DNA from: a virus
Lineage: Duplodnaviria; Heunggongvirae; Uroviricota; Caudoviricetes
Direction: 5' to 3' (one strand)
Length of the DNA: 42,087 nt
IMG/VR virus record: IMGVR_UViG_2565956712_000007
This document shows positions 6,573-37,063 of the stretch, one piece after another; position 1 is the first letter of the stretch; each line of letters begins with the position of its first letter. A program made the position numbers and the translations under genes. The notes beneath the pieces were generated by a model. The model was not told where the DNA came from. It searched no databases and saw nothing but the letters and a program-made list of their open reading frames with translations.

Positions 6573-6589
6573 ATTACCTTTCAGGTAAT
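6573..6589. promoter_or_regulatory. Operator-like site ATTACC-TTTCA-GGTAAT
   Basis: Perfect 6-bp inverted half-sites, 5-bp spacer; member of a 14-copy family. Confidence 0.6.
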
Positions 6590-6627
6590 TTGCAAAACGT
6601 GCTGGATAGCAAACAAATTATTTGATA

Positions 6628-6643
6628 CTGTATAAATATACAG
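6628..6643. promoter_or_regulatory. LexA (SOS) box CTGTATAAATATACAG
   Basis: CTGT-N8-ACAG with AT-rich centre, flanked tA...tt, 22 nt upstream of the ATG at 6665. Confidence 0.65.
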
Positions 6644-6664
6644 TTATTGCATGGAGAAGATAAG

Positions 6665-6922
6665 ATGCAGCAGTATCACTATCCACTGGAAGACGGATTT
6701 ACCGAAAGGATTCACACGCCGGGAGGCGTCAGGTCACTGGTGGAGGGATCGCACTTGATGAAATTACTCCGGGATCTCGATAAGGATGGATTTAATGTCG
6801 ATGGCCCACTTGCCGAACTGACTGCACTGATTAACTACGTCACCAGCTCACAGATGTCTATGCGGGATCTGCAAACACATCTCGACTATTGTGCCGAACA
6901 ATTACGAAAACAAACCCGGTAA
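6665..6922 (+). CDS. Small SOS-controlled protein (85 aa) carrying the antirepressor C-terminal module; candidate antirepressor
   Basis: GGAG RBS; C-terminal half aligns with the last 77 aa of both Ant proteins (LM.LL..L..DG..V.G..AELT...Y......RD.QTH..Y). Confidence 0.6.
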   Translation: MQQYHYPLEDGFTERIHTPGGVRSLVEGSHLMKLLRDLDKDGFNVDGPLAELTALINYVTSSQMSMRDLQTHLDYCAEQLRKQTR

Positions 6923-6929
6923 ATTTAAA

Positions 6930-6945
6930 GGCCGCAAGAGCGGCC
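6930..6945. terminator. Hairpin terminator GGCCGC-AAGA-GCGGCC between convergent genes
   Basis: Perfect 6-bp GC stem, 4-nt loop, T-rich flanks. Confidence 0.6.
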
Positions 6946-7673
6946 TATCGTTTCGCTTTGTGCTCATCCCAGCACGTTTTGCACCATGCCATTAAGCCGT
7001 CCGCATTTTGATTATTAGGGTAAAAGCTGGTTCGTTTTCTGCGGACATTACAAATTGGGCACCACTTCATATGGCGTGTATTCTTTGGGCCATCGAGACA
7101 CCTTGCACACCATTTAGTCAATCCATCTGGATTTTTTGACGATTTCCTGAATTTTTCATATGGAAGGTTTATTCTGCATCGCAAGCACTGCTTGCTACCA
7201 CTTGAAACTCTGTTAGCTGATTCTTCTTTTGGCGGCGATACAGAAGGTATTCTTGCTGGCTCTGATATTGCCTGAGGTGCTTTTTTAGATGACTGAGACG
7301 ATATGTCATCACCAGGGAATCTTCCATGATATGCCGGACGCGTTGACACTCCAGGTGGAATCTCAGCTGTAAACGGCTTTGGCTGAATCAGTTGCCTCTC
7401 TTTTGCTAACTCCTGCTGTTTATAATATGTCTGGATTACCGCACTATCATAAGCAGGAGGTGCGGAAATATTAGGCGCATTACCTCCAGTTTTTTGAAAC
7501 TGAGTAGAGGTGTGTTCTATCACCTGTGTACGATTAATCGTTATCTCCCCATCTTCGGTCTTTATCGTTTTGTTATGATTAACGACCGTACGATCAGAGA
7601 TCTTAGTCTTGTTCTGGTTGATAACGTAAATAATCACCGCAACCACACCAACAACTATCCAGAAAACTTCCAT
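6945..7673 (-). CDS. Membrane-anchored protein with duplicated Cys-rich (zinc-finger-like) C-terminal repeats; moron
   Basis: N-terminal TM helix; two C-x2-C ... W-C-x2-C repeats; operator-like site in its upstream region. Confidence 0.55.
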   Translation of the reverse strand: MEVFWIVVGVVAVIIYVINQNKTKISDRTVVNHNKTIKTEDGEITINRTQVIEHTSTQFQKTGGNAPNISAPPAYDSAVIQTYYKQQELAKERQLIQPKPFTAEIPPGVSTRPAYHGRFPGDDISSQSSKKAPQAISEPARIPSVSPPKEESANRVSSGSKQCLRCRINLPYEKFRKSSKNPDGLTKWCARCLDGPKNTRHMKWCPICNVRRKRTSFYPNNQNADGLMAWCKTCWDEHKAKR

Positions 7674-7692
7674 TGCTTTTCCTCACAATAAC

Positions 7693-7709
7693 ATTACCTT
7701 AAAGGTAAT
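7693..7709. promoter_or_regulatory. Operator-like site ATTACC-TTAAA-GGTAAT
   Basis: Perfect inverted half-sites. Confidence 0.6.
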
Positions 7710-7785
7710 ATCTTGCTTTCAGGTGATCAAGCGTTAAACGCAATCAACCAAATACGGTTGATTTTAATGTTTCTTCGCGCTTATC

Positions 7786-7802
7786 ATTACCTTTACGGTA
7801 AA
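7786..7802. promoter_or_regulatory. Operator-like site ATTACC-TTTAC-GGTAAA
   Basis: One mismatch to consensus; next to TTTACA -35-like hexamer. Confidence 0.5.
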
Positions 7803-7894
7803 TTTACATCGCACTCCTCTTGTGCCATAGTAATCGGGCACTGGCAAAATCCAGTGCCGGGATTGGCGTCCCGGATTACTACAGAGGCACATAT

Positions 7895-7915
7895 GCCGCA
7901 TAAGCGGTTTTTTTT
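7895..7915 (+). terminator. Intrinsic terminator in the ant leader
   Basis: Short GC stem GCCGC-ATAA-GCGG followed by T8. Confidence 0.5.
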
Positions 7916-8068
7916 ATGTGTAAAGCGCACCTATTCTATGGTGGGCTGTGTGGGGGCACCGAAAGGTGCGCCGGGTCCTTTGTAGCCGGTTACGCCAACC
8001 CTGCACAGTTCACCACCAACCGATTGGCGTCGGTAGTGGTGATTAACCTAACTACAAAGGTGATCACT

Positions 8069-8755
8069 ATGACTGCTAACGTAACCCCATCTGTTTTTCA
8101 TTTTGAATCAGAAGCAACCATTCGAGCCATTGTTATTGATGGAAATCCTTGGTTTGTTGCCAAAGACGTTATTAAAGCTCTTCAACTGACAAACCCCACT
8201 ATGTCAATAAAATCTCTTGATGATGATGAAAGGGCTAAATTTAACTTAGGCCGTCAAGGCGAAACCAATATTATCAACGAGTCAGGCCTCTACACACTGA
8301 TCCTCCGCTGCCGCGATGCGGTGACACCAGGCACTATCCCATACCGCTTTCGTAAATGGGTTACAGGTGAGGTTCTTCCTCAGATCCGCCGCACCGGAAG
8401 TTACATTAAAAACTCGCTCCCGCAAGAAGAACGCATAAAGATGGTTGCCGACCAGGTAGCCAACGCCACGGCGTCAGCAGTAATGCAGGCAATGAAGGTA
8501 GAGAACAAAACCTACAGCGCCCCACTGAAGCCCGGCTACCGCAGCCTGATTCATTCGCCGTCTGGTGTTCTCGGCCTGACAGAGAACTCACTGCTGATGA
8601 ATCTGCTGAACCAGTTACAGGACGACGGGCACGACGTATCGGGCGCGGCGGCGGAGCTGACCACCATGTTCTGCTACATCGTCGGTGTGAGCAAATGCCT
8701 GCGTGATATCCAGACCCACGCGGAGTACATCAACGACAAGGCAGGGTTCTTCTGA
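8069..8755 (+). CDS. Antirepressor, Bro-N-type N-terminal domain (Ant1)
   Basis: N-terminus FHFESEATIRAIVIDGNPWFVAKDV; RBS AAGGTGA; C-terminal 77 aa near-identical to Ant2. Track start 7916 is likely too far upstream. Confidence 0.8.
   Translation: MTANVTPSVFHFESEATIRAIVIDGNPWFVAKDVIKALQLTNPTMSIKSLDDDERAKFNLGRQGETNIINESGLYTLILRCRDAVTPGTIPYRFRKWVTGEVLPQIRRTGSYIKNSLPQEERIKMVADQVANATASAVMQAMKVENKTYSAPLKPGYRSLIHSPSGVLGLTENSLLMNLLNQLQDDGHDVSGAAAELTTMFCYIVGVSKCLRDIQTHAEYINDKAGFF
8522..8755 (+). repeat. Inverted repeat arm A (234 bp, about 96% identical to arm B)
   Basis: Encodes C-terminal 77 aa of Ant1; about 10 mismatches to the reverse complement of 9618..9851. Confidence 0.85.
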
Positions 8756-8825
8756 CGGCGGCGGCGCAGGGACGTGCCTTTAAATAATTCTGTACAGATT
8801 GCAGACTGGGGGTGAATAGCGTACT

Positions 8826-8842
8826 ATTACCTTAAAGGTAAA
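8826..8842. promoter_or_regulatory. Operator-like site ATTACC-TTAAA-GGTAAA
   Basis: One mismatch; directly upstream of an AAGGAGG RBS. Confidence 0.55.
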
Positions 8843-8853
8843 GGAGGCGCGAT

Positions 8854-9021
8854 ATGACAGCGTTGAAAAATCGTACTCAGCACAATGAACAAGCCAAGCA
8901 ATGCTGGGATGTCATTGGAAAAGTTATGCTTGGCCGCGCAAGCAAAGAGCGCGACAAGGATATGGTTTACCAGACAGGAACATCTTTCAGCGACTTCAAG
9001 GCGGCATTTCGCTCCAAATAG
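8854..9021 (+). CDS. Small protein (55 aa), hypothetical; first gene of cassette
   Basis: AAGGAGG RBS 6 nt before ATG; not in ORF track (under 60 aa); opposite-strand track ORF 8827..9027 has no RBS. Confidence 0.5.
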   Translation: MTALKNRTQHNEQAKQCWDVIGKVMLGRASKERDKDMVYQTGTSFSDFKAAFRSK

Positions 9022-9041
9022 AAGCACATTAGGAGTTTGTC

Positions 9042-9482
9042 TTGAAGTTTAACATTAGAATATCTAATAGTTTTCTAAATGGGGAAAGCAACACCCCTTT
9101 CGCTGTAGACGGACCTTTCCTTACTGACGATGAAATAAAAATCATACAAAGGTTTTTAGAAGATGTTGCCAATGGAAGGGCGCTTGTTGGAAAAAACAAG
9201 CCATCGTGGGTTAATGATAACCATGATAAAATTCCCGGCTCAGACAATTATGAGCAAGAGAATTATTGGCATTATCATTGTGGGCCAACATGGTATCCAA
9301 ACACATTTAAGAATTATACCATTAACTTAAATTTCAACCCTGGCGGAATGCATTCTAATGAATGCATTCATTATGCAAAAAATGATAATGAAATTGTCGT
9401 TGTTGGATTTTCAAGAGAACACATACCTTTCCTTTCATCAGATGGAAACGACAATCCGCTTTTTTATGATGAAGAAGAATAG
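9042..9482 (+). CDS. AT-rich hypothetical protein (146 aa, TTG start); moron, function unknown
   Basis: AGGAG RBS 6 nt before TTG; visibly AT-rich versus flanks; strong terminator after stop. Confidence 0.5.
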   Translation: MKFNIRISNSFLNGESNTPFAVDGPFLTDDEIKIIQRFLEDVANGRALVGKNKPSWVNDNHDKIPGSDNYEQENYWHYHCGPTWYPNTFKNYTINLNFNPGGMHSNECIHYAKNDNEIVVVGFSREHIPFLSSDGNDNPLFYDEEE

Positions 9483-9502
9483 CCCGCGGCGCGGGCTTTT
9501 TT
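9482..9502 (+). terminator. Intrinsic terminator GCCCGC-GGC-GCGGGC + T6
   Basis: Perfect GC stem then TTTTTT. Confidence 0.8.
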
Positions 9503-9540
9503 GTGTCTGCGGATTCCCACCCAGGCGGCGGTGGCATTCG

Positions 9541-9566
9541 TTAAAAACAAGGCCGCGAAAGCGGCC
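9541..9566 (-). terminator. Intrinsic terminator downstream of ant2
   Basis: GGCCGC-GAAA-GCGGCC hairpin followed by a U-run on the minus strand. Confidence 0.7.
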
Positions 9567-9567
9567 T

Positions 9568-9579
9568 GTGACATGTCAC
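9568..9579. repeat. 12-bp perfect palindrome GTGACATGTCAC (copy 1)
   Basis: Exact 12-mer, adjacent to the terminator hairpin. Confidence 0.9.
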
Positions 9580-9617: not shown

Positions 9618-9851
9618 TCAGAAGAACCCTGCCTTGTCGTTGATGTACTCCGCGTGCGTCTGGATATCACGCAGGCATTTGCTCACACCAACGATGTAGC
9701 AGAACATGGTTGTCAGCTCCGCCGCCGCGCCCGATACATCATGCCCGTCTTCCTGTAACTGGTTCAGCAGATTCATCAGCAGTGAGTGCTCCGTCAGGCC
9801 GAGAACACCAGACGGAGAATGAATCAGGCTGCGGTAGCCGGGCTTCAGCGG
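9618..9851 (-). repeat. Inverted repeat arm B (234 bp)
   Basis: Encodes C-terminal 77 aa of Ant2; reverse complement matches 8522..8755. Confidence 0.85.
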
Positions 9852-10556
9852 ATAACCATAACATTTTGTCTGTGTTTTAATTGCCTCACGAAGCGCATCT
9901 AACATCTTGACTGCCACTTCATCATTCTCTGATGCAGATCCAGCAGGGAGATACTCCCCTTCAAGCGGAACCCGAGCAACAAGAGACAACGCTTCGGCGA
10001 ATTGATCTTCATCAATTTCTTTGTACGAACAGCCAAAATGAGATTTCAGTGACGACCACATGGTGATCATCGCCTTAGCCTGTTTTTCTTTTGGCAGAGA
10101 CTGACCGCGACTCATGACGAGTTGTTTAATGGCTTCCTGCTGTTCAGTGGTGATTTTACCCGGCAACGCCTTTTTAGCTTTGCGTGGGTTAACTACATGG
10201 CCTTTAGTCCAGTAATCGTAGAGCACATCGTCACACTCTTCCTGATACTGGATTACCTTGTCGCGGATTTCAGGGCGTACTTTGTTTGGACTGATGCTGT
10301 TCAACCAAGCTGCCAATTTTCGTAAAGCCATACAAATCATGGCTTGCACCCCACCGGCAGAAGGTATGGTGATTTCCACCATACCCTTCGAGAAGCGTTG
10401 AGAAATCTTCTTATGTTGAGATTTCCAGTCTAGCCCCATTCCCTCAACGATAGGTTTCATTGGGGTATACGGTTCACCGTTGTGATTGACAACATAAAGC
10501 TCTGCGCCGTGGAATGGCACGTTGATAGTAGATACCGCTGTTGCTATACTCGTCAT
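9618..10556 (-). CDS. Antirepressor, P22 Ant-type N-terminal domain (Ant2)
   Basis: N-terminus VPFHGAELYVVNHNGEPYTPMKPIVEGMGLDW; downstream of arc-like gene as in P22 immI. Confidence 0.8.
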   Translation of the reverse strand: MTSIATAVSTINVPFHGAELYVVNHNGEPYTPMKPIVEGMGLDWKSQHKKISQRFSKGMVEITIPSAGGVQAMICMALRKLAAWLNSISPNKVRPEIRDKVIQYQEECDDVLYDYWTKGHVVNPRKAKKALPGKITTEQQEAIKQLVMSRGQSLPKEKQAKAMITMWSSLKSHFGCSYKEIDEDQFAEALSLVARVPLEGEYLPAGSASENDEVAVKMLDALREAIKTQTKCYGYPLKPGYRSLIHSPSGVLGLTEHSLLMNLLNQLQEDGHDVSGAAAELTTMFCYIVGVSKCLRDIQTHAEYINDKAGFF

Positions 10557-10628
10557 GTCGTTAATTCCTATACGTAGTTTTACGATACTGAAGCCCTGAC
10601 GGTCTGGCCACCGTTGGGCTTCGCTGTT

Positions 10629-10796
10629 TTATGCCACGCTATTCTTCTCACCAGTGAGTCCATACACTTTCCTCAGCTGATAGATAATCTCTGTATTGAA
10701 CTTTCGGCATTCTTTTTCGCCATTTCTTTCAATAGCTAACTTCACATCGTCCGGAAAACGAACTCGTCGTTGACACATCTCTTTTGCTTTTTGCAT
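10629..10796 (-). CDS. Arc-like ribbon-helix-helix repressor (56 aa)
   Basis: RVRFPDDVKLAIERNGEK..FNTEIIYQL resembles P22 Arc; AAGGAG RBS 7 nt before the ATG at 10796. Confidence 0.7.
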   Translation of the reverse strand: MQKAKEMCQRRVRFPDDVKLAIERNGEKECRKFNTEIIYQLRKVYGLTGEKNSVA

Positions 10797-10810
10797 TTCA
10801 TATCTCCTTA

Positions 10811-10825: not shown

Positions 10826-10916
10826 AAAACAATTGTCACACCGTGCGTCATTGATGTCAAGCACACGGTGAGGCATACTTCAATCATTGCAAGTAACTCA
10901 ATATTTGGTGAAGAAC

Positions 10917-11348
10917 ATGAGCAGAGAAGATCCACAACTAAGGATCAGACTTCCCGTTGAAGTAAAAGAAAAAATAGAAATTTCTGCAAAAGCCAATAAG
11001 CGATCAATGAACGCTGAAATAGTACAACGTCTTGACACCAGCTTTCTGAAAGATATTCATGAAGATGACGTAATTTCTGCTTATGAAGCAAAAATTATTG
11101 CAAACAATGCACGGCATGAAATATCAAATATTATTTTCAAAAGAACCTTTAATGAAATTAATAAGAAAATAACACTTGGACATACAAGTTTTTATATAAA
11201 CCTTAATGACCTTGAACTGGAATCACTTGCAGATAATGATTACCAGATCATCTTTGAAAAAACATTTAATAAGCTCAATGAACTAGGTTACATCATCTGT
11301 GAAAACTCATGGGATGCAGATGGTTTTGGAATTGAAATACCTGAATAG
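10917..11348 (+). CDS. Mnt-like RHH repressor fused to an AT-rich C-terminal extension
   Basis: N-terminus DPQLRIRLPVEVKEKIEISAKANKRSMNAEIVQRL matches P22 Mnt; about 60 aa longer than Mnt. Confidence 0.65.
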   Translation: MSREDPQLRIRLPVEVKEKIEISAKANKRSMNAEIVQRLDTSFLKDIHEDDVISAYEAKIIANNARHEISNIIFKRTFNEINKKITLGHTSFYINLNDLELESLADNDYQIIFEKTFNKLNELGYIICENSWDADGFGIEIPE

Positions 11349-11390: not shown

Positions 11391-12002
11391 TTGAAAAACG
11401 CCACATTACTGATGTATGTTACAACAAGGAGCGATATTTTGAAAACCATATCTATATTAAAGGTTGCATTAGGCGTCGCTATTATTTTGACTCTCTCAAT
11501 ATTGTTTTATTTTTACCACAAAAAAAATGCTATTGCTCTTGATGGTCACGCGGCAAACTCATTTTTCTCAGAGTACATAGTGCCGCTATCAGGAAGCGGT
11601 ATAACAAATAAATATACTGACTATGACATCAAATATGGAATTGATGATGGGGAGACTATTGTATTACATGTAATCATTAAAAACCTAATGACAGTAAATA
11701 AAAATACAGACTTCAACGATAAAAATACAATACATCACAACAACAGCAAAACATTAATTTCTTATAGTAGCAACATCTATACGGATAAATACCTAAAATA
11801 CATCTCAGAAGATACAATAAAAGCAACCAGCGAAAAGTTAAAAAACATATATTGTGCATCCGGCAGTTTTCACAAATTATCGCCGCAGGAGCGTTTATTC
11901 TACGAAGCAAGAAAACAACGTAAGTCAATAATATTACATTATTATGCTGATTCAGGGGAGTCACTCATATTTAATATTGGGGTTTCCCCTGAATCATGCT
12001 AA
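11391..12002 (+). CDS. AT-rich membrane-anchored hypothetical protein; candidate superinfection-exclusion moron
   Basis: N-terminal TM helix (ILKVALGVAIILTLSILFYFY); between ejection-protein gene and mnt-like gene; start uncertain. Confidence 0.45.
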   Translation: MKNATLLMYVTTRSDILKTISILKVALGVAIILTLSILFYFYHKKNAIALDGHAANSFFSEYIVPLSGSGITNKYTDYDIKYGIDDGETIVLHVIIKNLMTVNKNTDFNDKNTIHHNNSKTLISYSSNIYTDKYLKYISEDTIKATSEKLKNIYCASGSFHKLSPQERLFYEARKQRKSIILHYYADSGESLIFNIGVSPESC

Positions 12003-18787: not shown

Positions 18788-21252
18788 CAGAATCCCCCAA
18801 CAGTAAGACGAGGAATAACGGCAAGAACAGACAGCGGCAACGGGTCAAGCTGACGGATTCTTACACGTCCGTTTTTGCCCCAGTTACTGTCCAGTTTCAC
18901 TTCTACTTTTCCGGTAGCGTCATCAACAGGATCATCGTAGAACTCGAATTCACGCTGTGGATATTCGTACCATTTACCGCCGGGCGTAGTCGCCCAGATG
19001 CCACGACTGGCATTCACAACCAGAGTAACGGACGGGATCACCTGTTTTTTGTCCAGCAGCGTTTCCTGTCCGTTAATGTTGATATCCAGTGTTTCGAATT
19101 CAGCAGTTATTGGCAGGCCGATGTGCACTACAGCCCCAGGTGATTCCAGCGTGACGGCACCTCCGGAAACCACTTTCTGTGGTTCCACGTTCGCATCAGA
19201 GAGAATGTTTACGGTCTGGCCTTCAAGATGAGACAGGCCTCCAAATGTCCGGCGCGCCATCTGCCAGTTCGTGGTGGCCACATTCCTGAGGGATGGCGGG
19301 ACGTTCCTGTTAGCACGAACCACTACAGCGGTATTGCTGGTTACAGAAATAATGTCGCAACGTAATTCTTTTGACACTTCAGTATCAGGATCAGTTCCGG
19401 TATAAGGGAACTGTAGTTGCGCGCCGACATCACTACTGGTGAAGTACGCACCACCAGAAACACTGATTGTATATTCCGCACGGTAATCCCATTCACCAGA
19501 ACCACCAGTGATGGTCATCGTTCTGTCAGACGTATTTCTTCCATCATAGCTAAGGCCAGAATCAACAAAGAAAGCATCTTCATCGCTGGTAAATAAACGG
19601 CTGGACAGTCGCTCTATGTATCTCACTGTTTGCCCGTTAACGGTTCGGTTAACGACGAAATACACCGCATCTTCATTGCCTTCGCTGATACTGCATGTGC
19701 TTTCATATTTTCCGGTACTGGATTGTGGTGCCCATGCAAAAACCTGCTGATCACGCAAATAGGTCATCACCAGTAATTTACCGTCATCACGAATGCAGAA
19801 GGCGCTGGAGTAAGGGACAATCGAGAAGCACCAGTCAACAATGCTGTGCTTCTGAAAAAGATGATTGGCAAGGATGGTCAGGTCGTTCCCCTGATAGCCG
19901 TCAACATCGAATGAGTAGGCCAGATCACGGACAACACTGCCTTTCTCCTGGACGAACAGAGCAATATTCGCCACGGCAATTGGTGGGACATTGCTCGAGC
20001 CATTTGATCCCTGAGAGCTGAATGCAAATGATGATGGGGTAAGCACTTTGTTCTGGTCGCCAGTGATGACGTACTCACCTCCGGAAGTCAGCGCCACCAG
20101 CGAACCAACATCAATCAGGTGACGGATCTCATTAACCTGACGCCCGGCATAGGTGTAGATAATTCTGTCGTCATCCTGCGTAGGATTGCTTTTGCCAAAA
20201 TCCTTATAATCCCCGGTACGGCTGGCCCAGATAGTCTGAGGGAACGCAGTCGATGCGGCGAAGTAAAGGCGTTGTTGATAATAAACAACAGTGCCAGGAT
20301 AACCGTTAATACTGTTCCAGGCATATTTAGCCCATTTATAGCTGGCATTATCCTCGCCAACTACCTGCGAAGGGATATAGGAAATCACCTCGGCAGTTGC
20401 AGTAGTTCCATTTGCAGCAGAGATACGGGCAATGCCAAAACCACTGTGCAGATACTCCCACTCAATGCCGGTATCATCATCACCGGATCCGCCCCAGCCA
20501 TCCCATGATGTGCCTTCTGTATGCGAAGGGCGCAAAGTGCCTGTTTTGCCTGCTGTAACGGCGCGATAGTAGTTACTGTCTGCACGGCGAATATCGCCAA
20601 TCGACGTACTCTTACTGGTTTCCCATACCGGCACAGAATCCACTGCAGGCTGTTCCAGATAGAACAATTTGCCTACCTGCTCCGCGCCAAAAATTGAGGC
20701 GCTTGCCGTTAACGTAATTGTCCCGGTGCTGGCGCTGGCATAAACCGTCACTGACTCGTCAATATTGATATCTTCAAATGGCCCGTTCTTCGTTACCACA
20801 TCAACCAGTTGCCAGTTGTCATGCGCATAGCGGCGCAACTCTTTCGGCGGGTATGCCGGATGAACCAGCGTAAGCACGTCTGCGCTTTGCGTGAATTTAA
20901 TTCGGAACAGATCGGCTTCAGTATATGGCGTGGCAATTTCATAAATAACATTGCTGCTGTTCAGCACCAACGCACCATCTTTGATAACGCGCATGTACTG
21001 GTGTCCGAACTCCAGAGCATAAGTCTGAACCGTCGAGAACTGGAACGGGATCAGGCGGCATTTCCGATTTGGGTATTTGGCGGCACCGACAAAACGCGTA
21101 CCAGGTCGATTCTCAACGCCGCCATACTGCCGCACGATAAAGTTATCGCACTTGCGCAATGCCACCTGGTACTTCGCCATGTCGATACGACCGTACAACG
21201 ACGGTCCAATCTCACCACCGGCAAAGCTGGGCTGGATCCAACTGATAGCCAT
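18787..21252 (-). CDS. Tail tubular protein B-like / nozzle protein (821 aa)
   Basis: Size and position after a roughly 200-aa tube-A-like gene in a T7-like order. Confidence 0.65.
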   Translation of the reverse strand: MAISWIQPSFAGGEIGPSLYGRIDMAKYQVALRKCDNFIVRQYGGVENRPGTRFVGAAKYPNRKCRLIPFQFSTVQTYALEFGHQYMRVIKDGALVLNSSNVIYEIATPYTEADLFRIKFTQSADVLTLVHPAYPPKELRRYAHDNWQLVDVVTKNGPFEDINIDESVTVYASASTGTITLTASASIFGAEQVGKLFYLEQPAVDSVPVWETSKSTSIGDIRRADSNYYRAVTAGKTGTLRPSHTEGTSWDGWGGSGDDDTGIEWEYLHSGFGIARISAANGTTATAEVISYIPSQVVGEDNASYKWAKYAWNSINGYPGTVVYYQQRLYFAASTAFPQTIWASRTGDYKDFGKSNPTQDDDRIIYTYAGRQVNEIRHLIDVGSLVALTSGGEYVITGDQNKVLTPSSFAFSSQGSNGSSNVPPIAVANIALFVQEKGSVVRDLAYSFDVDGYQGNDLTILANHLFQKHSIVDWCFSIVPYSSAFCIRDDGKLLVMTYLRDQQVFAWAPQSSTGKYESTCSISEGNEDAVYFVVNRTVNGQTVRYIERLSSRLFTSDEDAFFVDSGLSYDGRNTSDRTMTITGGSGEWDYRAEYTISVSGGAYFTSSDVGAQLQFPYTGTDPDTEVSKELRCDIISVTSNTAVVVRANRNVPPSLRNVATTNWQMARRTFGGLSHLEGQTVNILSDANVEPQKVVSGGAVTLESPGAVVHIGLPITAEFETLDININGQETLLDKKQVIPSVTLVVNASRGIWATTPGGKWYEYPQREFEFYDDPVDDATGKVEVKLDSNWGKNGRVRIRQLDPLPLSVLAVIPRLTVGGF

Positions 21253-26751: not shown

Positions 26752-26958
26752 TTACTGACCAAGCAGCGTTTTACCGCTGGTATTAGCGGTTGATGTGTCG
26801 CCCTGAGAACCGGTAAGCAGCGTAGAACTACGACCAGCAGCAGCGCGACGGCGACGTGTTTCTTCGTCGCGGGCATCAACAACGGCAGCATCCTGCTCCT
26901 GTGGTGCTGCCTGAACTTCTGGTGTTGCAGGCACTGATGGTGAGCTACCCATGCACAT
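26752..26958 (-). CDS. Small hypothetical protein upstream of portal (68 aa)
   Basis: GGAG RBS; low-complexity sequence; could be spurious. Confidence 0.35.
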   Translation of the reverse strand: MCMGSSPSVPATPEVQAAPQEQDAAVVDARDEETRRRRAAAGRSSTLLTGSQGDTSTANTSGKTLLGQ

Positions 26959-27047
26959 ATCAATGACTCCGTACGCAATTAAATTATTACCAATTTAACC
27001 ACATATGATTTATTTATCGTAGATAGTTGACATTTAACGCGCGAATT

Positions 27048-27064
27048 ATTACCTTTCAGGTAAC
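27048..27064. promoter_or_regulatory. Operator-like site ATTACC-TTTCA-GGTAAC
   Basis: Same half-sites and same spacer as the 6573 site. Confidence 0.55.
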
Positions 27065-27385
27065 TAAAGAGTTCATTCCGGTTACTAACCTGACTGGCTT
27101 GTCGTTAAATTGAACAGGTGGAGTGAGCTTTTATTTTGAGCAGTACGGCGTATGGCACATGCGACGATAGCGGTCTGGATACGTTTAAGGGGCACCCTCC
27201 CTTGCTCGGGCAAACGAACCAGGTAGCCGGAATGTGCAAGTCGAGCGGTTTTATTCCGCGCACGGGGATTCACCATCCCGGCGATTCGGTGTGACGCCTC
27301 GGAAGAGACGAGGGTACAACGATGAGAGCATTTATGGAGCCGCGACAAAGTGTGGTGCCTTAACAGGCTAAGTGCTCTCAGCGTT

Positions 27386-27462
27386 GTGGCATTAGCTCAG
27401 TTGGACAGAGCAACCGCCTTCTAAGCGGTTGGTCGCAGGTTCGAATCCTGCATGCCACGCCA
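27386..27462 (+). tRNA. tRNA-Arg (anticodon UCU)
   Basis: Hand-folded cloverleaf: 7-bp acceptor GTGGCAT/ATGCCAC, D-stem GCTC/GAGC, anticodon stem ACCGC/GCGGT with loop CTTCTAA, T-arm GCAGG-TTCGAAT-CCTGC, discriminator G, encoded CCA. Confidence 0.85.
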
Positions 27463-27505
27463 GAATCACGCCTAAGGACCGTGATGCCAGAAGTTCCAGG
27501 GGCTT

Positions 27506-27547
27506 GGCGGTGATGGTTTCCCTTGAAGGACTATCACCGCCCTTTTT
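27506..27547 (+). terminator. Hairpin + T5 downstream of the tRNA
   Basis: 9-bp stem GGCGGTGAT / ATCACCGCC with large loop, then CTTTTT. Confidence 0.5.
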
Positions 27548-27625
27548 ACAGCAGGACGCCATTGCGATGACTTCATGCTGTAAACCAGTACAGCCACGGA
27601 AGGCATAACTCATTGCTTCCAGTTC

Positions 27626-27650
27626 GCCCGGTTCGCCGGGCATTTTTTTA
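27626..27650 (+). terminator. Intrinsic terminator GCCCGG-TTCG-CCGGGC + T7
   Basis: Perfect stem with tetraloop followed by ATTTTTTTA, 10 nt before the moron RBS. Confidence 0.7.
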
Positions 27651-27660
27651 AGGTGAGATT

Positions 27661-28083
27661 ATGAAGACAATTGATATGTTGGCTAAGTATCTAAATGAAT
27701 GGCCATTAAAATATTCTCGTATCGTTCAGGCTGAAGACTGCGTTTTTTATGGCGTTTTTGCTGGTAATGAAATGCATTACGAAGTAATTCAGAGTGAGGG
27801 ACTGACCGGGTTAACTCTTAGCGAAGACCATGGTACTAGCGTTACGTTCCATGACTGGATAACAGCACAACGTTCTGAAATGGAAAAAGGCGATGTGTTT
27901 GATATTTCTCGCGCTGTATACGCCAAAGAAAAAAGTGATGATGATTACATGCGCGAAAACTTATACAACATGAAGTTACAATGCCTGGCTGAAGTGCTTA
28001 GTAAAAGATCTTTACTTGATGTGGTTGGTGCTGAGCAGGACGCCAAGGCAATCAACGCCGCATTCGATAAAATAACCTTCTAA
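27661..28083 (+). CDS. Moron protein (140 aa), function unknown
   Basis: RBS AAGGTGAG; antisense to late operon; own terminator. Confidence 0.6.
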   Translation: MKTIDMLAKYLNEWPLKYSRIVQAEDCVFYGVFAGNEMHYEVIQSEGLTGLTLSEDHGTSVTFHDWITAQRSEMEKGDVFDISRAVYAKEKSDDDYMRENLYNMKLQCLAEVLSKRSLLDVVGAEQDAKAINAAFDKITF

Positions 28084-29649: not shown

Positions 29650-30242
29650 TGATTACCATCCTGACGTTCTTTGAGTCGCTTCCTGGCTGCTGCTATGCGA
29701 TCAGCAATTGTCACATTCACATTAACATCCAGACGTTCTTTGAATGCGTTGACATCAACATGCTTACCAATCAGCTCAAGGTTCTTCACCTTGTCAGGCC
29801 ATTTAATTTTTTTGAGGATTGTCTCTATTGAATCCTCGTTCATGTTCATGATGGTCGATGACAGATCAAAGCCACTAAGCGTAGTGCGCCAGATTTTCGG
29901 CCACTCACGGATTGGTTTAAGGCTCCCATCGTCGTTGAGGATGTCGATCACGTCCATCTGGTCGATCTCCACCAGGCGCATGAGAACGTAATCAGCACTG
30001 ACACGCATTCGTTTGTTGCGCTCCTCCATCAACTCGGCAATCCGTTTCTGAATGCGTTCATCGCGCATCATGACACTGGCTTTAACTGCCGCTGTATTTG
30101 GGGAGAATCCTGCGTTAATCGCAGCCTGAGTCTGGTTTTCAGGCGTTTTGATGTATGACTGGCAATAAGCCTCCTGCATTGCTGTGAGCGGCTTAAATTG
30201 CGTTGATTTGCGTTTATAGGTTTTAGGTTCAGCAGGCATCAT
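29646..30242 (-). CDS. Terminase small subunit (start probably the ATG-ATG at 30242/30239, not the track TTG at 30320)
   Basis: Terminase_2-like region LTAMQEAYCQSYI...AAINAGFS; upstream 78 nt hold an operator-like site and a terminator hairpin. Confidence 0.7.
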   Translation of the reverse strand: MMPAEPKTYKRKSTQFKPLTAMQEAYCQSYIKTPENQTQAAINAGFSPNTAAVKASVMMRDERIQKRIAELMEERNKRMRVSADYVLMRLVEIDQMDVIDILNDDGSLKPIREWPKIWRTTLSGFDLSSTIMNMNEDSIETILKKIKWPDKVKNLELIGKHVDVNAFKERLDVNVNVTIADRIAAARKRLKERQDGNQ

Positions 30243-30258
30243 AACCACCGTGGTAATT

Positions 30259-30275
30259 GTTACCGTTGTGGTAAT
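30259..30275. promoter_or_regulatory. Operator-like site GTTACC-GTTGT-GGTAAT in the terminase leader
   Basis: Inverted half-sites, 5-bp spacer. Confidence 0.5.
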
Positions 30276-32006: not shown

Positions 32007-32628
32007 CGTTTTGTTCTCCTGCGTCTCCTTTGATGCGAATGCCAGTAGCGCGGATTGCATCGATGACTTCAGAAACTTTGTATGCCATTACCGTTTGGTA
32101 ATCATCGTGAAAATCTGTTCGATGAAGCATGCTGCTACGTTCCGGGAGCAGTATTTCCCGCTCCTCCAGTTCTGCTATGCGCTTCTCTGCGGCTCCCAGC
32201 TTCTCGCGCATATCGTCAACGTACTCGACCAGAGAACCGCCAGCAGGAATTTCGCACTCCTCGACCAGTTGGAAGTAGATATCAGCTGCGGCCCGTGTGT
32301 TGCTATGCCTAGCGTCGCCCATCTCACCTTCACGAAGAGCATCGCGTTCGGCGGTAAGATTGGCTATTTTGCTGTCTTTGCCTTCCAGCTCAACACGCAG
32401 CTTCCCTACCGTTAGCGCAATATCCTCGTTCTCCTGGTCGCGGCGTTTGATGTATTGCTGGTTTCTTTCCCGTTCATCCAACAATACCAGCGCGATATCT
32501 GGCGAAAAGTGCTTCATAAAATCGTTAAGCGCATTAATTCGCTGATCGAAAGGCATTACAGGTGCTTCACCAGCAATTTTTGTTTTTTCAGCGATTTCAC
32601 GAAGCTTTTGATAATCAATCTTGCTCAC
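31993..32628 (-). CDS. Hypothetical coiled-coil phage protein (211 aa)
   Basis: Charged, heptad-like repeats; nin-like region. Confidence 0.5.
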   Translation of the reverse strand: MSKIDYQKLREIAEKTKIAGEAPVMPFDQRINALNDFMKHFSPDIALVLLDERERNQQYIKRRDQENEDIALTVGKLRVELEGKDSKIANLTAERDALREGEMGDARHSNTRAAADIYFQLVEECEIPAGGSLVEYVDDMREKLGAAEKRIAELEEREILLPERSSMLHRTDFHDDYQTVMAYKVSEVIDAIRATGIRIKGDAGEQNDEKP

Positions 32629-33879: not shown

Positions 33880-33896
33880 TTTACCCCTTAGGTAAT
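33880..33896. promoter_or_regulatory. Operator-like site TTTACC-CCTTA-GGTAAT
   Basis: Between P-like gene stop and next gene start. Confidence 0.5.
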
Positions 33897-33941
33897 TAAA
33901 AACCACATAAGACATGAAATCAATAGATACTAGAATATTTT

Positions 33942-33958
33942 ATTACCCATCAGGTAAT
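33942..33958. promoter_or_regulatory. Operator-like site ATTACC-CATCA-GGTAAT
   Basis: Perfect half-sites. Confidence 0.6.
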
Positions 33959-33994
33959 CATGTGGGCGTAAAAAAATGCGCTATCGCGCTGGTA

Positions 33995-34795
33995 TTACTT
34001 GATAAATCCTGCCGCCTTTCCCCGCCTGTATTCCTCCATCAGCCACTGCGCCGGTGTTATTCCCCCCAGGGTGGCGGCGTTAGGCATACACCCGAAACTT
34101 CGCCCTGGTGGATGGTAAACGTCTCTCCCTGTGTCCGGAGGCGTACTCATGGGTTCTGGCTTTGCCTGTATGCTGATCACCGGATCGGGTATCTGCTGTC
34201 CGGAAGCCACCTTTTTCGCCCAATCATCGAGCAGCCTGCGCGCGTGTTTCTCAACCTCAATCTCGCTAAGCTGGCGCTGATACATTGCACGGCGGGTATC
34301 ACATACGACCCAGTACATAACCGGATGTCGCCACGGGAATCTTTCGGGACCACCAGGATATAAACTTTTTTCCTTGCTGTACCGGTGAAACTCCGCCATC
34401 ACATCGTCAATGGTGACGCCAAGAACCATCTTGCTGTCTTTGCACCACTTGATAAATTGCCCTGGCGACGGCCAGAACGGAGATTCACTGGCGCGGGCGT
34501 GGCGCATACCAGCAGAAACCTGTTCACGGGTTCGGATCCCACCTTCGGCAAACGCAGCAATCCACTGCTGTTTTGCAGCAACTTCCTGCTCTGGCGTCTT
34601 CAGGTTGGTTACCACTGCCGCCGGAAACAGCTGTTTCAGCTGTTTGAAAAGAGCATCAACAAGCCTCTCTGCTGACATGTTCACCACATTGTCATTGTTG
34701 ACGTACTGATGCTCATAACCTGACATGCGAGAAAGGGCTTCTCCGTCACGGTTTTGTATCGCGGTAAAAACGTTGTTCACAAGAAATCCTCCCAT
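33995..34795 (-). CDS. Replication protein, lambda P-like helicase loader
   Basis: Blocks QWIAAF.EGGI.T.EQV.AGMR.AR....PF.PSPGQF..WC, LYP, YW match my recollection of lambda P. Confidence 0.7.
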   Translation of the reverse strand: MGGFLVNNVFTAIQNRDGEALSRMSGYEHQYVNNDNVVNMSAERLVDALFKQLKQLFPAAVVTNLKTPEQEVAAKQQWIAAFAEGGIRTREQVSAGMRHARASESPFWPSPGQFIKWCKDSKMVLGVTIDDVMAEFHRYSKEKSLYPGGPERFPWRHPVMYWVVCDTRRAMYQRQLSEIEVEKHARRLLDDWAKKVASGQQIPDPVISIQAKPEPMSTPPDTGRDVYHPPGRSFGCMPNAATLGGITPAQWLMEEYRRGKAAGFIK

Positions 34796-35592
34796 GCTTC
34801 AGGGCTGTTCCAGTGCGGAACGTTGTTATCAGGTAATGTTGATTGCTTCTGTCTGCTAATCTGCAGCCGCCTTGCCAGCTTCTGCTCCCACTGTGCCTGA
34901 TGGTATGCCTTACCCTCAGCCATCCAGTAAATTCTGAACTCTGCAAGTTCCTGTGCCGTTGGCAGACTGTCCAGGTAGATCCCCTGCAATGAGCTTTTCC
35001 GAAGAAAGTCATCTGATGGCTGCCATTGTTCATGCATGACAAATTTGCCTAATTGCCCTGGCCCACCAGGAGGAACAAAGTTATTCATCACGGCGTTGTT
35101 TGCGCCGGGGTCATGAGGCACAGAATCCCCGCTTTTTGTCCTGCTCTCCCTCTCTTGGTTAAATGACTGGTTATATGACTGGTTCTGGATCCCGTTTTTG
35201 GGATCATTCAACATCCCGTTTTTGGGATCATTCAACATCCCGTTTTTGGGTATATTCCCGTTTCCGGTAACATTACCGTTTTCGGGTTCATTACCCCCTT
35301 CCCGGTTGCCTTTAATGTTCCCGTTTTTGGTTATATTAAGAGAGAAAACCCGTACTCTTTTCGTCGCCCCCTTTCTCTCTCCGGTATCTGAAATAAGCCC
35401 CATTTTCATGAGCGATATAAGCCCGGCCTGCACGGTTTTTTTATTCAGGCAAGTGTCTTTAACGAGGCGTTCTATGCTGGGGTAGCAGAGGTTATATTCA
35501 TCGGCTCTGTCAGCCATCGAGAGCAGTATGAGCTTTAATGACGAGCTACCTGGATCTGTCTCCCAGGCCCAATCTGTTGCATGTCTGCTCAT
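34777..35592 (-). CDS. Replication initiator, O-like, with N-terminal HTH; contains origin iterons
   Basis: N-terminal HTH-like LKLILLSMADRADEYNLCYPSIERL; central Asn/Gly repeats encoded by iterons. Confidence 0.7.
   Translation of the reverse strand: MSRHATDWAWETDPGSSSLKLILLSMADRADEYNLCYPSIERLVKDTCLNKKTVQAGLISLMKMGLISDTGERKGATKRVRVFSLNITKNGNIKGNREGGNEPENGNVTGNGNIPKNGMLNDPKNGMLNDPKNGIQNQSYNQSFNQERESRTKSGDSVPHDPGANNAVMNNFVPPGGPGQLGKFVMHEQWQPSDDFLRKSSLQGIYLDSLPTAQELAEFRIYWMAEGKAYHQAQWEQKLARRLQISRQKQSTLPDNNVPHWNSPEAWEDFL
35189..35337. repeat. Origin iterons: about 7 direct repeats with core CCCGTTTTTGG
   Basis: Two identical 24-bp units ATCCCGTTTTTGGGATCATTCAAC then degenerate units at 19-24 bp spacing. 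Confidence 0.75.
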
Positions 35593-35607
35593 GATTAATC
35601 TCCGCTA

Positions 35608-35877
35608 TCAGCTTGAATGTTGTGGGGAGGAATTAATCATGATCTGCTTAATCTCAGCCCTGATGCGACGGTTTGATTCCATGGTGCACTCAACACAGTG
35701 TCCGTTGTAAACCCAGCGTTCACTGTCATGTCCGTGCTTACATGGTTTTCCGGTGTAGTAGCGTTTAAGTCCGCGCTTTGCGGCATCAATACGTGTAATG
35801 ATTTCCATGGTAAGCCCTGTTATTAGTATTGGGATTACGGTCATTTTGTGCTGACACAAAAAAAAGATCAACCACAT
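35608..35877 (-). CDS. Small Cys/His-containing protein at the cII-equivalent position (start uncertain)
   Basis: KPCKHGH...NGHCVEC; between tR1-like terminator and O-like gene. Confidence 0.45.
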   Translation of the reverse strand: MWLIFFLCQHKMTVIPILITGLTMEIITRIDAAKRGLKRYYTGKPCKHGHDSERWVYNGHCVECTMESNRRIRAEIKQIMINSSPQHSS

Positions 35878-35887
35878 TTGGTTTTTT

Positions 35888-35904
35888 ATTACCCTTAAGG
35901 TGCT
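35888..35904. promoter_or_regulatory. Operator-like site ATTACC-CTTAA-GGTGCT (degenerate right half)
   Basis: Upstream of gene 35608..35877. Confidence 0.4.
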
Positions 35905-35910
35905 AATAGA

Positions 35911-35936
35911 TATTAAAAGACCGCCGGATGGCGGTC
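35911..35936 (-). terminator. tR1-like intrinsic terminator after the cro-like gene
   Basis: GACCGCC-GGAT-GGCGGTC hairpin followed on the minus strand by UUUUAAUA. Confidence 0.7.
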
Positions 35937-35958
35937 TACAGAGGGTTGTAGCTGGATA

Positions 35959-36189
35959 TCATGAGTAGAAGAAGTATGCCAGTTCTGCTTTTGAGCGCAG
36001 CCATTGTCTTGTTTTACAGGCTTTAAAAAGCCCATTCATCAATACTTTACCTGGCATTTTGCGCTTACCTGTTAAGTGAGTCTGGATATAGTGACTCGTC
36101 GTTCCGGCTTCCTGTGCGAAGGCTTCACGCTCATCCGGAGTAAGTGCAAGCCAGTGCTTTTTGAAATCGAAATGTCCGTTATCGCTCAT
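35959..36189 (-). CDS. Cro-like HTH regulator (YdaS-type)
   Basis: Small HTH protein divergent from the repressor gene across an operator cluster. Confidence 0.65.
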   Translation of the reverse strand: MSDNGHFDFKKHWLALTPDEREAFAQEAGTTSHYIQTHLTGKRKMPGKVLMNGLFKACKTRQWLRSKAELAYFFYS

Positions 36190-36224
36190 AGCTATTGCCT
36201 GATATTTATTTCAGATAATAAATA

Positions 36225-36289
36225 TTCACCCATAAGGTAACAAAAATCAAGGATAGTTACCCATGAGGTGCATTTACCTGTTGGGTAAT
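36225..36289. promoter_or_regulatory. OR-like operator cluster of three 17-bp sites (36225-36241, 36256-36272, 36273-36289)
   Basis: TTCACC-CATAA-GGTAAC, GTTACC-CATGA-GGTGCA, TTTACC-TGTTG-GGTAAT between divergent cro-like and cI-like genes. Confidence 0.7.
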
Positions 36290-36343
36290 ATTGCTTTAAA
36301 TTGAATCATCTACTGATTCATATATGAGGCGATTTTCCAGAAA

Positions 36344-36928
36344 ATGAAAAGTATCCAGGACGTCCGCAGGCAAAATCTCAACGACTTGATCGACCGTGAA
36401 TTCAATGGTGTTCAGACGCGGATGGCTGAAAAACTTGGAACTCAGGCAAATCTGGTAAACCGCTGGGCTCTTGGTAAGAAGGTTATCGGCGATCAGGTTG
36501 CGCGAAAAATTGAAGCTGCCGCCAATAAACCCCGTAACTGGCTTGATATCGATCGCTCGCTTTCTCAGGAAGGTTTTCAGCCTGTCGGCCCAAGCGACAT
36601 TGGCCAGCTGGCGGCTCACAACCTGGAACGCTGGATGAGCGAAAGCCGCGACCTTTCAACACAGGGAAAACTTCACCGCGCATCCGGCGTCGCCCAGGTG
36701 ACAATCAGCCGCCTGTTAAACAATGAGGTCAGCGTTTCCATTTCCACCCTGGAGAATGTTGCATCCGCATTCGGGCGTCACGGCTATGAATTACTGATTC
36801 ACCCGCACGACCCTGCGACCATCAACTATGATCGCTCGCGCTACGCATTGTTACCCGAAACCGAGAAAGCAAAGATCGAAAGTTACATTGAATTTGTCAT
36901 CAACCAGAACGAAAAAAACAAACAATAA
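36344..36928 (+). CDS. Prophage repressor, cI-position, HTH (XRE-type) without recognisable S24 autocleavage domain
   Basis: HTH motif TRMAEKLGTQANLVNRWALGKK plus second HTH-like segment; flanked by OR-like and OL-like operator clusters. Confidence 0.7.
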   Translation: MKSIQDVRRQNLNDLIDREFNGVQTRMAEKLGTQANLVNRWALGKKVIGDQVARKIEAAANKPRNWLDIDRSLSQEGFQPVGPSDIGQLAAHNLERWMSESRDLSTQGKLHRASGVAQVTISRLLNNEVSVSISTLENVASAFGRHGYELLIHPHDPATINYDRSRYALLPETEKAKIESYIEFVINQNEKNKQ

Positions 36929-36950
36929 AACCATATTTTTCAGTAAGTAA

Positions 36951-36972
36951 GCCGCCTTATGGCGGCTTTTTT
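36951..36972 (+). terminator. Intrinsic terminator GCCGCC-TTAT-GGCGGC + T6
   Basis: Perfect stem and T-run after the repressor gene. Confidence 0.85.
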
Positions 36973-36984
36973 ATTGCCTATTCG

Positions 36985-37063
36985 ATTACCTAACGGGTAA
37001 TTTTTTTAACTCATATCTATTGACATCAAACCATATACGCATAATTATTACCTCAACGGTAAC
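36985..37063. promoter_or_regulatory. OL/pL-like region: two 17-bp operators (36985-37001, 37047-37063) flanking a TTGACA -35 hexamer (37020-37025)
   Basis: ATTACC-TAACG-GGTAAT and ATTACC-TCAAC-GGTAAC; promoter points into the early-left operon. Confidence 0.65.

Follow-up and report, generated by a model that had tools for sequence, protein, structure and literature searches.

How far beyond its own gene does the repressor of a temperate phage reach? In the scheme known from phage lambda (λ), repression works through two operator clusters, yet in the 42,087-nt stretch of viral DNA analysed here (Caudoviricetes; IMG/VR record IMGVR_UViG_2565956712_000007; hereafter the window, meaning the whole stretch) a 17-bp inverted repeat, ATTACCNNNNNGGTAAT (ATTACC-N5-GGTAAT), recurs far outside the immunity region. 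An earlier note had counted 14 copies, ascribed them to a cI-like repressor and proposed that one regulator directly wires many promoters, unlike the two-operator λ arrangement. Our analysis indicates that these dyads are very likely the operators of a repressor of a different type, Rep, which would directly silence nearly every phage operon in the lysogen. Four observations carry this view, namely the enrichment of the motif, the conservation of its positions, the homology of Rep and a link between the half-site and a helix-turn-helix (HTH) domain; the promoters, operator occupancy and DNA looping discussed below are predicted.

A dispersed family of sites conserved among relatives

The motif is strongly over-represented. 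The window holds four exact matches (6573, 7693, 33942 and 36985; 0 expected), and at up to two mismatches there are 14 against 1.11 expected, a number reached in none of 100 shuffled controls. Scores from a position weight matrix (PWM) of the symmetrised half-site are bimodal, with 15 positions at or above 13.5 bits and the next best, at 8.5 bits, being 36256, the middle site of the right operator (OR). The final family comprises 15 full sites (6573, 7693, 7786, 8826, 27048, 30241, 30259, 33880, 33942, 35888, 36225, 36256, 36273, 36985 and 37047; Table 1), all of them non-coding provided that TerS starts at ATG 30239 and not at TTG 30320. They fall into about 10 regulatory regions, and 10 of the 15 lie outside OR and the left operator (OL), at seven other loci. 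The OR sites 36225 and 36256 carry three to four mismatches and are recognisable only via PWM score, position and conservation.

BLAST of the immunity region and mapping of the phiV10 genes by tblastn identify the window as a prophage of a phiV10/ε15-type temperate podophage (genus Uetakevirus), oriented in reverse to the phiV10 record. We scanned five relatives (phiV10, Enterobacter phage Tyrion, Salmonella phages ε15 and SPC32H, and Klebsiella phage BUCT711) using a PWM in which the 5-bp centre carries no weight, at a threshold of 12 bits. Each gave 12–16 hits against 0.25–0.47 expected (0.25–0.72 when the window is included, with the same range of hits), so that in related genomes, too, the motif stands well above a background of less than one site each. 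The six genomes come from phages of four host genera (E. coli, Enterobacter, Salmonella and Klebsiella), and their sites are syntenic. Single sites occur before the small pre-portal gene, in the divergent region between ant and the tail-fibre gene, and at the BroN-type ant, the lysis cassette and int; multiple sites occur in the TerS leader (two, abutting), OL (two to three), OR (three) and as a pair after the replication genes; a further class is a weak site past the cro terminator. Aligning the site neighbourhoods reveals conservation of the flanking promoter-like blocks as well, and in ε15 all 14 sites lie in intergenic DNA, which makes up 6.6% of that genome. Two of these classes are missing from the window: the conserved Rep-like site that precedes int (phiV10 26869, ATTACCTTAAAGGTATA) falls outside because the window ends exactly at the int start codon, and the lysis-cassette site is absent because the adjacent oac region has been replaced.

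Part of this set had already been recorded. The ε15 RefSeq entry contains seven protein_bind features labelled 'repressor / lysogeny', all of which read ATTACC-N5-GGTAAT when extracted. They lie in the TerS leader (12-27; homologous to 30259), upstream of gp3 (2931-2947; 27048), in the gap between gp19 (ant) and the tail-fibre gene (19895-19911; 6573), in OL (three features; 36985/37047) and in the post-replication region (35906-35922; 33942, the upstream member of its pair). The annotation is incomplete, omitting the OR sites, the pair partners and the lysis and int sites. Nevertheless, because its authors labelled dispersed sites, the idea of dispersed operators is already on record and not new; a close relative already carries the annotation, and P1 and L5 provide classical parallels.

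Three other candidates were set aside. The copies at 2728 (two mismatches, but only 7.6 bits) and 2948 (about 13 bits, unconserved in relatives) lie in coding DNA and look like chance matches. A perfect ATTACC-N4-GGTAAT dyad at 32087-32102, its spacer 1 bp below that of the family (0 expected by chance), lies within an ead/Ea22-like gene. The surrounding segment is shared, at 97% identity, with HK620 and Stx phages that have no Rep, so the dyad is probably a coding coincidence. Its N4 spacing is that used by the Pseudomonas homologues of the Rep N-terminal domain described below.

The repressor and the domain that would read the motif

The gene between OR and OL had been taken for a cI-like repressor gene, and on this point the earlier note was mistaken. 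Its product, Rep, resembles the SPC32H Rep of PDB entry 5D50 over its full length (phmmer E=4e-42, residues 1-190). Pfam places HTH_3 at residues 106-147 and a weak HTH at 21-61, and finds no Peptidase_S24 in Rep, giving HTH families alone. Rep is thus not a cI/LexA-like protein but an SPC32H-Rep-type repressor without an autocleavage domain, presumably a tetramer that antirepressors inactivate. Its N-terminal HTH domain would bind DNA, the middle HTH_3-fold domain would dimerise, and the C-terminal domain would serve tetramerisation and Ant binding (roles per PMC9986798). According to secondary literature, SPC32H Rep is a tetramer on palindromic DNA that is taken apart by the tetrameric antirepressor Ant (PMC9638917); it is built from an N-terminal DNA-binding domain, a domain for dimerisation and a p53-like 'TetDloop' (DNA-loop-type) domain for tetramerisation, with the two dimerisation-domain pairs ~100 Å apart (PMC9986798). 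Over-expression of the phage ZX5 repressor, which is identical to Rep, abolishes free phage, blocks lytic growth and lowers holin and endolysin mRNA by >99.9%, while the operators were left undefined in that paper (PMC9782041). Such repressors are widespread: a search with the Rep alignment gave 324 confirmed relatives, the best 80 of the 324 all being 100% identical.

Variation among the sites argues for recognition by a protein. In a set of 66 unique sites, ACC/GGT hardly varies, with a single exception at position 6, the central base is A or T in 92%, and the family consensus is TTACC-N5-GGTAA with a free centre. One-sided deviations outnumber compensatory ones by 53 to 2, and because the deviations are nearly all non-compensatory, they point to a sequence-specific protein reading DNA half-sites and not to an RNA stem. 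Rep is ~42-43% identical overall to the Reps of the Salmonella phages ε15 and SPC32H, yet the motif is common to all of them because the helix NLVNRW is invariant among these proteins.

Outside the genus, the motif tracks the N-terminal HTH domain, with the half-site shifting along with the diverging recognition helix. Repressors of unrelated Pseudomonas and Acinetobacter phages share this domain and have dyads flanking their genes. The cI protein of the Pseudomonas siphophage PseuP_224 is the Rep N-terminal domain fused to an S24 peptidase domain, and on both sides of its gene lie ATTACC-N4-GGTAAT dyads, a downstream pair and an upstream group of three (10905-10946, 11767-11821), with no convincing copies elsewhere in the PseuP_224 genome. 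The dyads near the corresponding repressor of JBD68 read TWACC-N4-GGTAA, that of Turba reads TTAACC-N5-GGTTAA and that of an Acinetobacter prophage TTTAGTA-N3-TACTAAA. The protein homology search with the N-terminal domain returned close fragments only, and the distant relatives came from tblastn on phage records. The gradient from ATTACC (N4) through TTAACC (N5) to TTAGTA (N3) is a natural specificity series that could help to decode helix–base contacts. In a λ-like genome, the same HTH domain uses the classical two-cluster layout, a contrast that matches what the earlier note had proposed for the window.

Sites and predicted promoters

Clusters resembling OR (three sites) and OL (two sites) had been expected around the repressor gene, and PWM scores, positions and conservation in relatives bear this out. 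Spacings in OR are 31 and 17 bp; the three-site layout with its 17+30/31 spacing is visible in six of six genomes, with all three sites above 12 bits only in ε15 and SPC32H. A predicted rightward promoter (PR) on the − strand (TTGTTA-17-TATTAT, 36243-36215) overlaps site 36225. The best-matching site, 36273, overlaps not PR but the −35 element of a putative repressor-maintenance promoter (PRM; TTTACC-17-TTAAAT, conserved in ε15), 36225 being the weaker of the two. These strengths reverse the OR1>OR3 order of λ and suggest strong negative autoregulation or a target for Cro. The OL pair flanks a predicted leftward promoter (PL; −35 TTGACA 37020-37025, −10 AATTAT 37043-37048, spacer 17), with site centres at about −62 (36985) and +1 (37047). 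The OL distance is 62 bp in phiV10 and Tyrion and 63 bp in BUCT711, and ε15 and SPC32H have a 62-bp pair plus a third site 76 bp further.

The OR layout brings in the strongest competing view, that the dispersed sites serve mainly the Cro-like protein, or Rep and Cro both, and tune lytic transcription instead of or besides lysogeny. In λ-type switches, repressor and Cro share operators, and here the cro-like gene, divergent from rep across OR, matches a 'transcriptional repressor' family (phrog_35), while the strongest OR site overlaps the putative PRM, where Cro would be expected to act. However, the half-site accompanies the Rep N-terminal domain in phages where the neighbouring genes are unrelated, the ε15 curators gave the sites to the repressor, and SPC32H Rep is reported to bind palindromic sites (PMC9638917). 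We regard such use by Cro as less likely than not, binding by Cro beside Rep as plausible, and Rep as the probable reader of the sites.

The second 62-bp pair (33880/33942) lies downstream of the terminator behind the replication genes and just upstream of the DUF1064 gene (ATG 33877). A − strand promoter is predicted there (−35 TTGATT 33923-33918, spacer 17, −10 TTTAAT 33900-33895), with 33880 centred at about +1 and 33942 at about −62. In the terminase leader, where the earlier note had placed a single site, 30259 is real but is abutted by a second site, 30241. Site 30259 overlaps a conserved extended −10 element, TGgTACTAT (30282-30274). Both sites are conserved in phiV10, Tyrion and ε15; in SPC32H the first alone exceeds 12 bits and the second copy is degenerate. 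TerS most likely starts at ATG 30239, which directly follows the second operator and corresponds to the start annotated in ε15, Tyrion and SPC32H; a phiV10-style start at TTG 30320 would put the terminator and both operators inside the TerS open reading frame (ORF).

At two further loci, the arrangement TTGAYN-17-TACCTT sets the −10 element within the operator: on the + strand at 27048 (TTGACA, 27028-27033), where the site and the TTGAC element are conserved in six of six genomes, and on the − strand at 7693 (TTGATC). The promoter at 7786 heads an isrK-like RNA (7838-7914; Rfam 76.8 bits), a C4 antisense RNA (7934-8020; 79.5 bits) and the BroN-Ant gene, and 8826 lies directly upstream of the ribosome-binding site and ATG of a 55-aa ORF (8854-9021; phrog_8607). 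Site 6573, conserved in six of six genomes, abuts the candidate −35 (TTGCAA) of the ant promoter. The site at 35888, earlier listed with the rest, is weak, with two mismatches, but its position is conserved in phiV10, Tyrion, ε15 and SPC32H.

Two regularities emerge from these loci. First, at five of them (PL, post-replication, TerS leader, C4/ant and 8826) a −10-like hexamer ends in the AT of ATTACC, and the operator is therefore centred on about +1 of the predicted promoter. Second, the six genomes give 27 neighbour spacings below 200 bp, of which 12 measure 62/63 bp, 8 measure 17/18 bp and 3 measure 30/31 bp. When IMG/VR was scanned for pairs of dyads with the 62-bp spacing, at least 120 stretches came up, and among the matches listed a Rep homologue (40–100% identity) is encoded within the fetched locus in 99 of 120.

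The same loci allow a different reading, in which some sites are stoperator-like roadblocks that stop read-through into the packaging and delayed-early genes. Mycobacteriophage repressors do end elongation at many dispersed sites (PMC9283540), the TerS sites and the 33880/33942 pair come directly after intrinsic terminators, and 30241 and 33880 abut start codons and overlap sequences resembling Shine–Dalgarno elements. But the sites are palindromic and hence orientation-independent, the upstream pair members precede predicted −35 elements, and the hexamers ending in the AT of ATTACC fit promoter occlusion. A roadblock function appears unlikely, although it and occlusion are not mutually exclusive.

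Two further explanations are far weaker. That the dyads act as RNA hairpins (6-bp stem, 5-nt loop), as processing or antitermination signals like boxB or RNase III sites, is highly improbable and was rejected: every site can fold, several lie in 5′ leaders and some of the intergenic regions concerned have RNase III sites annotated in the ε15 record, but the variation is almost wholly non-compensatory, the one-sided deviations breaking pairs while half-site sequence is conserved and pairing and loop are not, and the upstream members of the 62-bp pairs precede predicted promoters and would stay untranscribed. No more probable is binding by a host factor, for instance an MqsA-like protein with its ACCT-N3-AGGT dyad (which we take to resemble the sites), or a mere repeated boundary sequence without a regulatory role: ACCT-N3-AGGT occurs in four sites (6573, 7693, 8826 and 27048) and several sites lie at junctions of conserved and variable modules, but the consensus is TTACC-N5-GGTAA with ACCT/AGGT missing from most sites, and the motif is conserved over four host genera, co-occurs with Rep homologues and keeps a stereotyped geometry to −10 elements.

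Hybrid elements and a second dyad

The earlier note had also singled out 6523 and 26986 as sites extended to a longer shared motif. A conserved element, ATTACC-N5-AACCAC(ATATG), does exist at both, but they are half-site hybrids and not full sites, each consisting of one Rep half-site fused to a different dyad. At the head-gene hybrid, the block CATATGTGGTTAAATTGGTAATAATTTAA is essentially invariant in six of six genomes and the 62-bp distance to the neighbouring full site is exact in all six; at the tail-spike hybrid, the pattern CATATR-GGTT-N5-GGTAATAGAAT is likewise conserved in all six. The second conserved dyad, AACCAYATRTGGTT, lies beside Rep sites at 3146, 6534, 7746, 26997 and 35870, with a half copy near 33901. 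The five whole copies precede, in turn, the lysis cassette, tail-spike gene, C4/ant leader, head-gene block and p42 gene, and relatives have the dyad at the same places. At the p42 gene it takes the form AACCACATTTGGTT (35870-35883) and adjoins site 35888. Probably the dyad is bound by another regulator or forms part of late promoters.

Three antirepressors

Three proteins encoded in the window carry the SPC32H-Ant domain (phrog_450), each under different control (Table 1). Rep sites lie upstream of the first two Ant genes, and none lies upstream of the third.

Table 1. Operator sites, hybrid elements and regulatory genes in the window (coordinates are window positions)
Feature	Position	Strand	Remarks
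Perfect site	6573..6589		Between the tail-spike gene (3494-6469, −) and the SPC32H-type ant (6665-6922, +)
Perfect site	7693..7709		Adjoins start of 242-aa Zn-ribbon gene (6945-7673, −; phrog_6762)
Site	7786..7802	+	Centred on +1 of predicted promoter TTGATT-18-TATCAT (7758-7787)
Site	8826..8842	+	Overlaps −10-like TACTAT (8822-8827)
Full site	27048..27064		Divergent region between small gene before portal (26752-26958, −) and + strand unit
TerS-leader sites	30259-30275 and 30241-30257	−	Abutting, 18 bp apart; between terminator and probable ATG 30239
Operator pair	33880-33896 and 33942-33958	−	62 bp apart; spacing exactly 62 bp in 6/6 genomes
Weak site ATTACCCTTAAGGTGCT	35888..35904	−	15.6 bits; after cro terminator, upstream of p42 gene (35608-35808, −)
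OR cluster, three sites	36225..36289		Between rep and the divergent cro-like gene
OR site TTCACCCATAAGGTAAC	36225-36241		PWM 15.4 bits
OR middle site GTTACCCATGAGGTGCA (weak)	36256-36272		PWM 8.5 bits
OR site TTTACCTGTTGGGTAAT	36273-36289		PWM 21.7 bits
OL pair	36985-37001 (perfect) and 37047-37063	+	62 bp apart
Hybrid element ATTACC-N5-AACCACATATG	6523..6544	−	50 bp from 6573; upstream of TAGAAT −10-like hexamer facing the tail-spike gene
Hybrid element ATTACC-N5-AACCACATATG	26986..27007	−	Starts exactly 62 bp from full site 27048; upstream of head-gene block
Rep gene	36344..36928	+	tblastn 100% identity to phiV10 gp40
cro-like gene	35959-36189	−	phrog_35 'transcriptional repressor'; divergent from rep across OR
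LexA box TACTGTATAAATATACAGTT	6626-6645		2/20 mismatches, 0 expected
Stand-alone Ant	6665-6922	+	87% identical to SPC32H Ant; wider span 6647-6922
BroN-Ant fusion	7916-8755	+	Behind isrK-like and C4 antisense RNAs, as in P1 immI
Third Ant	9618-10556	−	sar antisense RNA 10558-10625, P22 immI-like
Arc-like ORF	about 10629-10800	−	Third-Ant module
Arc/Mnt-domain ORF	10887-11348	+	Third-Ant module

A model of direct repression and its weak points

The proposal that one regulator wires many promoters finds support in the clustering, synteny and intergenic location of the sites, their −10/+1 geometry and the HTH link. In our model, each palindrome would be read by a pair of Rep N-terminal domains. 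At PL, the post-replication promoter, TerS, C4-ant and 8826, the operator would be centred on the −10/+1 region of a σ70-type promoter, and because it covers that region, bound Rep would block RNA polymerase. PL and the post-replication promoter would have a second operator exactly 62 bp upstream, and the head-gene promoter a hybrid half-site in the equivalent −62 position; since 62 bp is about six helical turns, the two operators would face the same side of the DNA. Both may be held by one tetramer, or by several that cooperate, which would clamp the promoter. Given that Rep is tetrameric, with ~100 Å between the dimerisation-domain pairs in the SPC32H structure, we infer that bridging of the 62-bp pair is the simplest model.

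In the lysogen, Rep would thus directly silence early-left, early-right, delayed-early, packaging/head and tail-fibre transcription, in the relatives also that of lysis and int, together with two of the three antirepressor genes. Ant induced by the SOS response through its LexA box, or either of the other Ants, would then break up Rep and free every operon simultaneously. Such direct control would explain how a single Ant can switch on the whole genome. Lysogeny in this group, which is very common in E. coli, Salmonella, Klebsiella and Enterobacter, appears to be kept by one antirepressor-sensitive tetramer acting directly on nearly every operon and not by a λ-style switch plus cascade.

A more far-reaching synthesis, which we hold tentatively, as a possibility more than an expectation, joins these elements. 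Rep tetramers may clamp promoters through phased 62-bp pairs (about +1/−62) at PL, at the post-replication promoter and, via the hybrid and AACCAYATRTGGTT, at the head-gene promoter. The genus would have swapped the λ-style antitermination cascade for direct genome-wide repression, the three antirepressors (controlled by LexA, by C4/isrK RNA and by sar/Arc/Mnt) would converge on one tetramer, and the second dyad would belong to a further regulator, intercepted by Rep at late promoters. The strict 62-bp pairing, the hybrid half-sites, the co-occurring second dyad and the apparent convergence of three differently controlled antirepressors on one repressor may be unpublished, and the ~15 natural operators with their conserved 62-bp geometry are a resource for experiments on DNA binding by the structurally unusual SPC32H-type Rep.

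Several points weigh against the view that Rep acts directly at all these sites. Binding to the sites and the transcriptional effects in this phage are predicted from sequence. The promoters are consensus matches only, and generic promoter scans find as many in shuffled sequence; for this reason, only the stereotyped geometry relative to the operators was used as promoter evidence. The operator at the ant promoter lies upstream of the −35, so that simple occlusion does not apply there, and LexA, not the Rep site, is predicted to cover the core of this promoter. The position of 36273 on the putative PRM −35 departs from the λ order, and a loop of 62 bp is very tight for bare DNA. Finally, ε15, intended as a heteroimmune control with a different motif (its Rep is 42% identical), was rejected as such, since it carries the same motif and its NLVNRW helix is invariant; covariation within the genus is uninformative.

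Relation to known systems

The window closely matches the Rep–Ant system of SPC32H and ε15. It encodes a full-length, S24-free Rep homologue, it has a small SPC32H-type ant between the late operon and the tail-spike gene and under a LexA box, and ATTACC-N5-GGTAAT sites occupy the repressor positions annotated in ε15. Unlike SPC32H and ε15, this prophage adds two Ant-domain antirepressors, with P1-type C4/isrK and P22-type sar/Arc/Mnt control, and is without a site upstream of the lysis cassette.

With regard to function, the closest paradigm appears to be C1 of P1, and the stoperators of mycobacteriophages are a second analogue. As with C1, one repressor would serve more than 10 operators in separate operons, including an ant operon with a C4 RNA, which is a functional analogy and not homology; the 7786 promoter, leading into the isrK-like RNA, C4 and ant, is a direct parallel to the C1-controlled immI of P1. 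C1, too, is inactivated by protein antagonists (Coi/Ant) and not by cleavage. No sequence homology between Rep and C1 emerged, no search having been aimed at it. P1 has 22 dispersed C1 operators with the consensus ATTGCTCTAATAAATTT (PMC8546580). However, these are asymmetric 17-mers read by a C1 monomer, whereas the sites described here are symmetric dyads for a tetrameric HTH protein, and the consensus sequences are unrelated. In Cluster A mycobacteriophages (L5/Bxb1-type), repressor sites occur genome-wide, mostly in short intergenic gaps, and silence the lysogen (PMC9283540). Those stoperators are asymmetric and oriented and are bound by a monomeric repressor that blocks elongation, in contrast to the symmetric sites of the window, mostly on predicted −10/+1 regions. 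Because both analogues have asymmetric sites and monomeric repressors, this phage would work like them but belongs to neither family.

The tripartite OR between divergent repressor and cro-like genes, and an OL of two to three sites downstream of the repressor gene, are shared with λ-type phages and PseuP_224. There, however, the sites are confined to OL and OR and the repressor undergoes S24 autocleavage, neither of which holds in the window; compared with PseuP_224, this phage has ~10 extra sites at seven further loci, antirepressors and an N5 in place of an N4 spacer. Another point of comparison is Rco of Bacillus plasmid pLS20, a TetDloop protein with an N-terminal HTH and a p53-like tetramerisation domain that is antagonised by a partner protein and exerts repression by linking two operators that lie some 75 bp from each other (PMC9986798). 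This bridging is comparable to what we infer for Rep at the 62-bp pairs, although the targets of Rco are arrays of 8-bp direct repeats confined to one locus.

Neighbouring features

The operator at 27048 overlaps a predicted TTGACA promoter at which a + strand unit (27065-28083), antisense to the late operon, would start. The unit comprises a ~320-nt leader with no significant fold (z = −1.5), a tRNA-Arg(TCT) gene (27386-27462) and a 140-aa ORF (phrog_4846); the 'p04' ORF of phiV10, which overlaps the tRNA-Arg on the opposite strand, is probably spurious. The segment between the int and lysis ends of the prophage map (window 1-1071, + strand) contains an ORF for a glycine-zipper/TraT-like lipoprotein and a DUF5384 ORF, and at the matching position phiV10 has attP.

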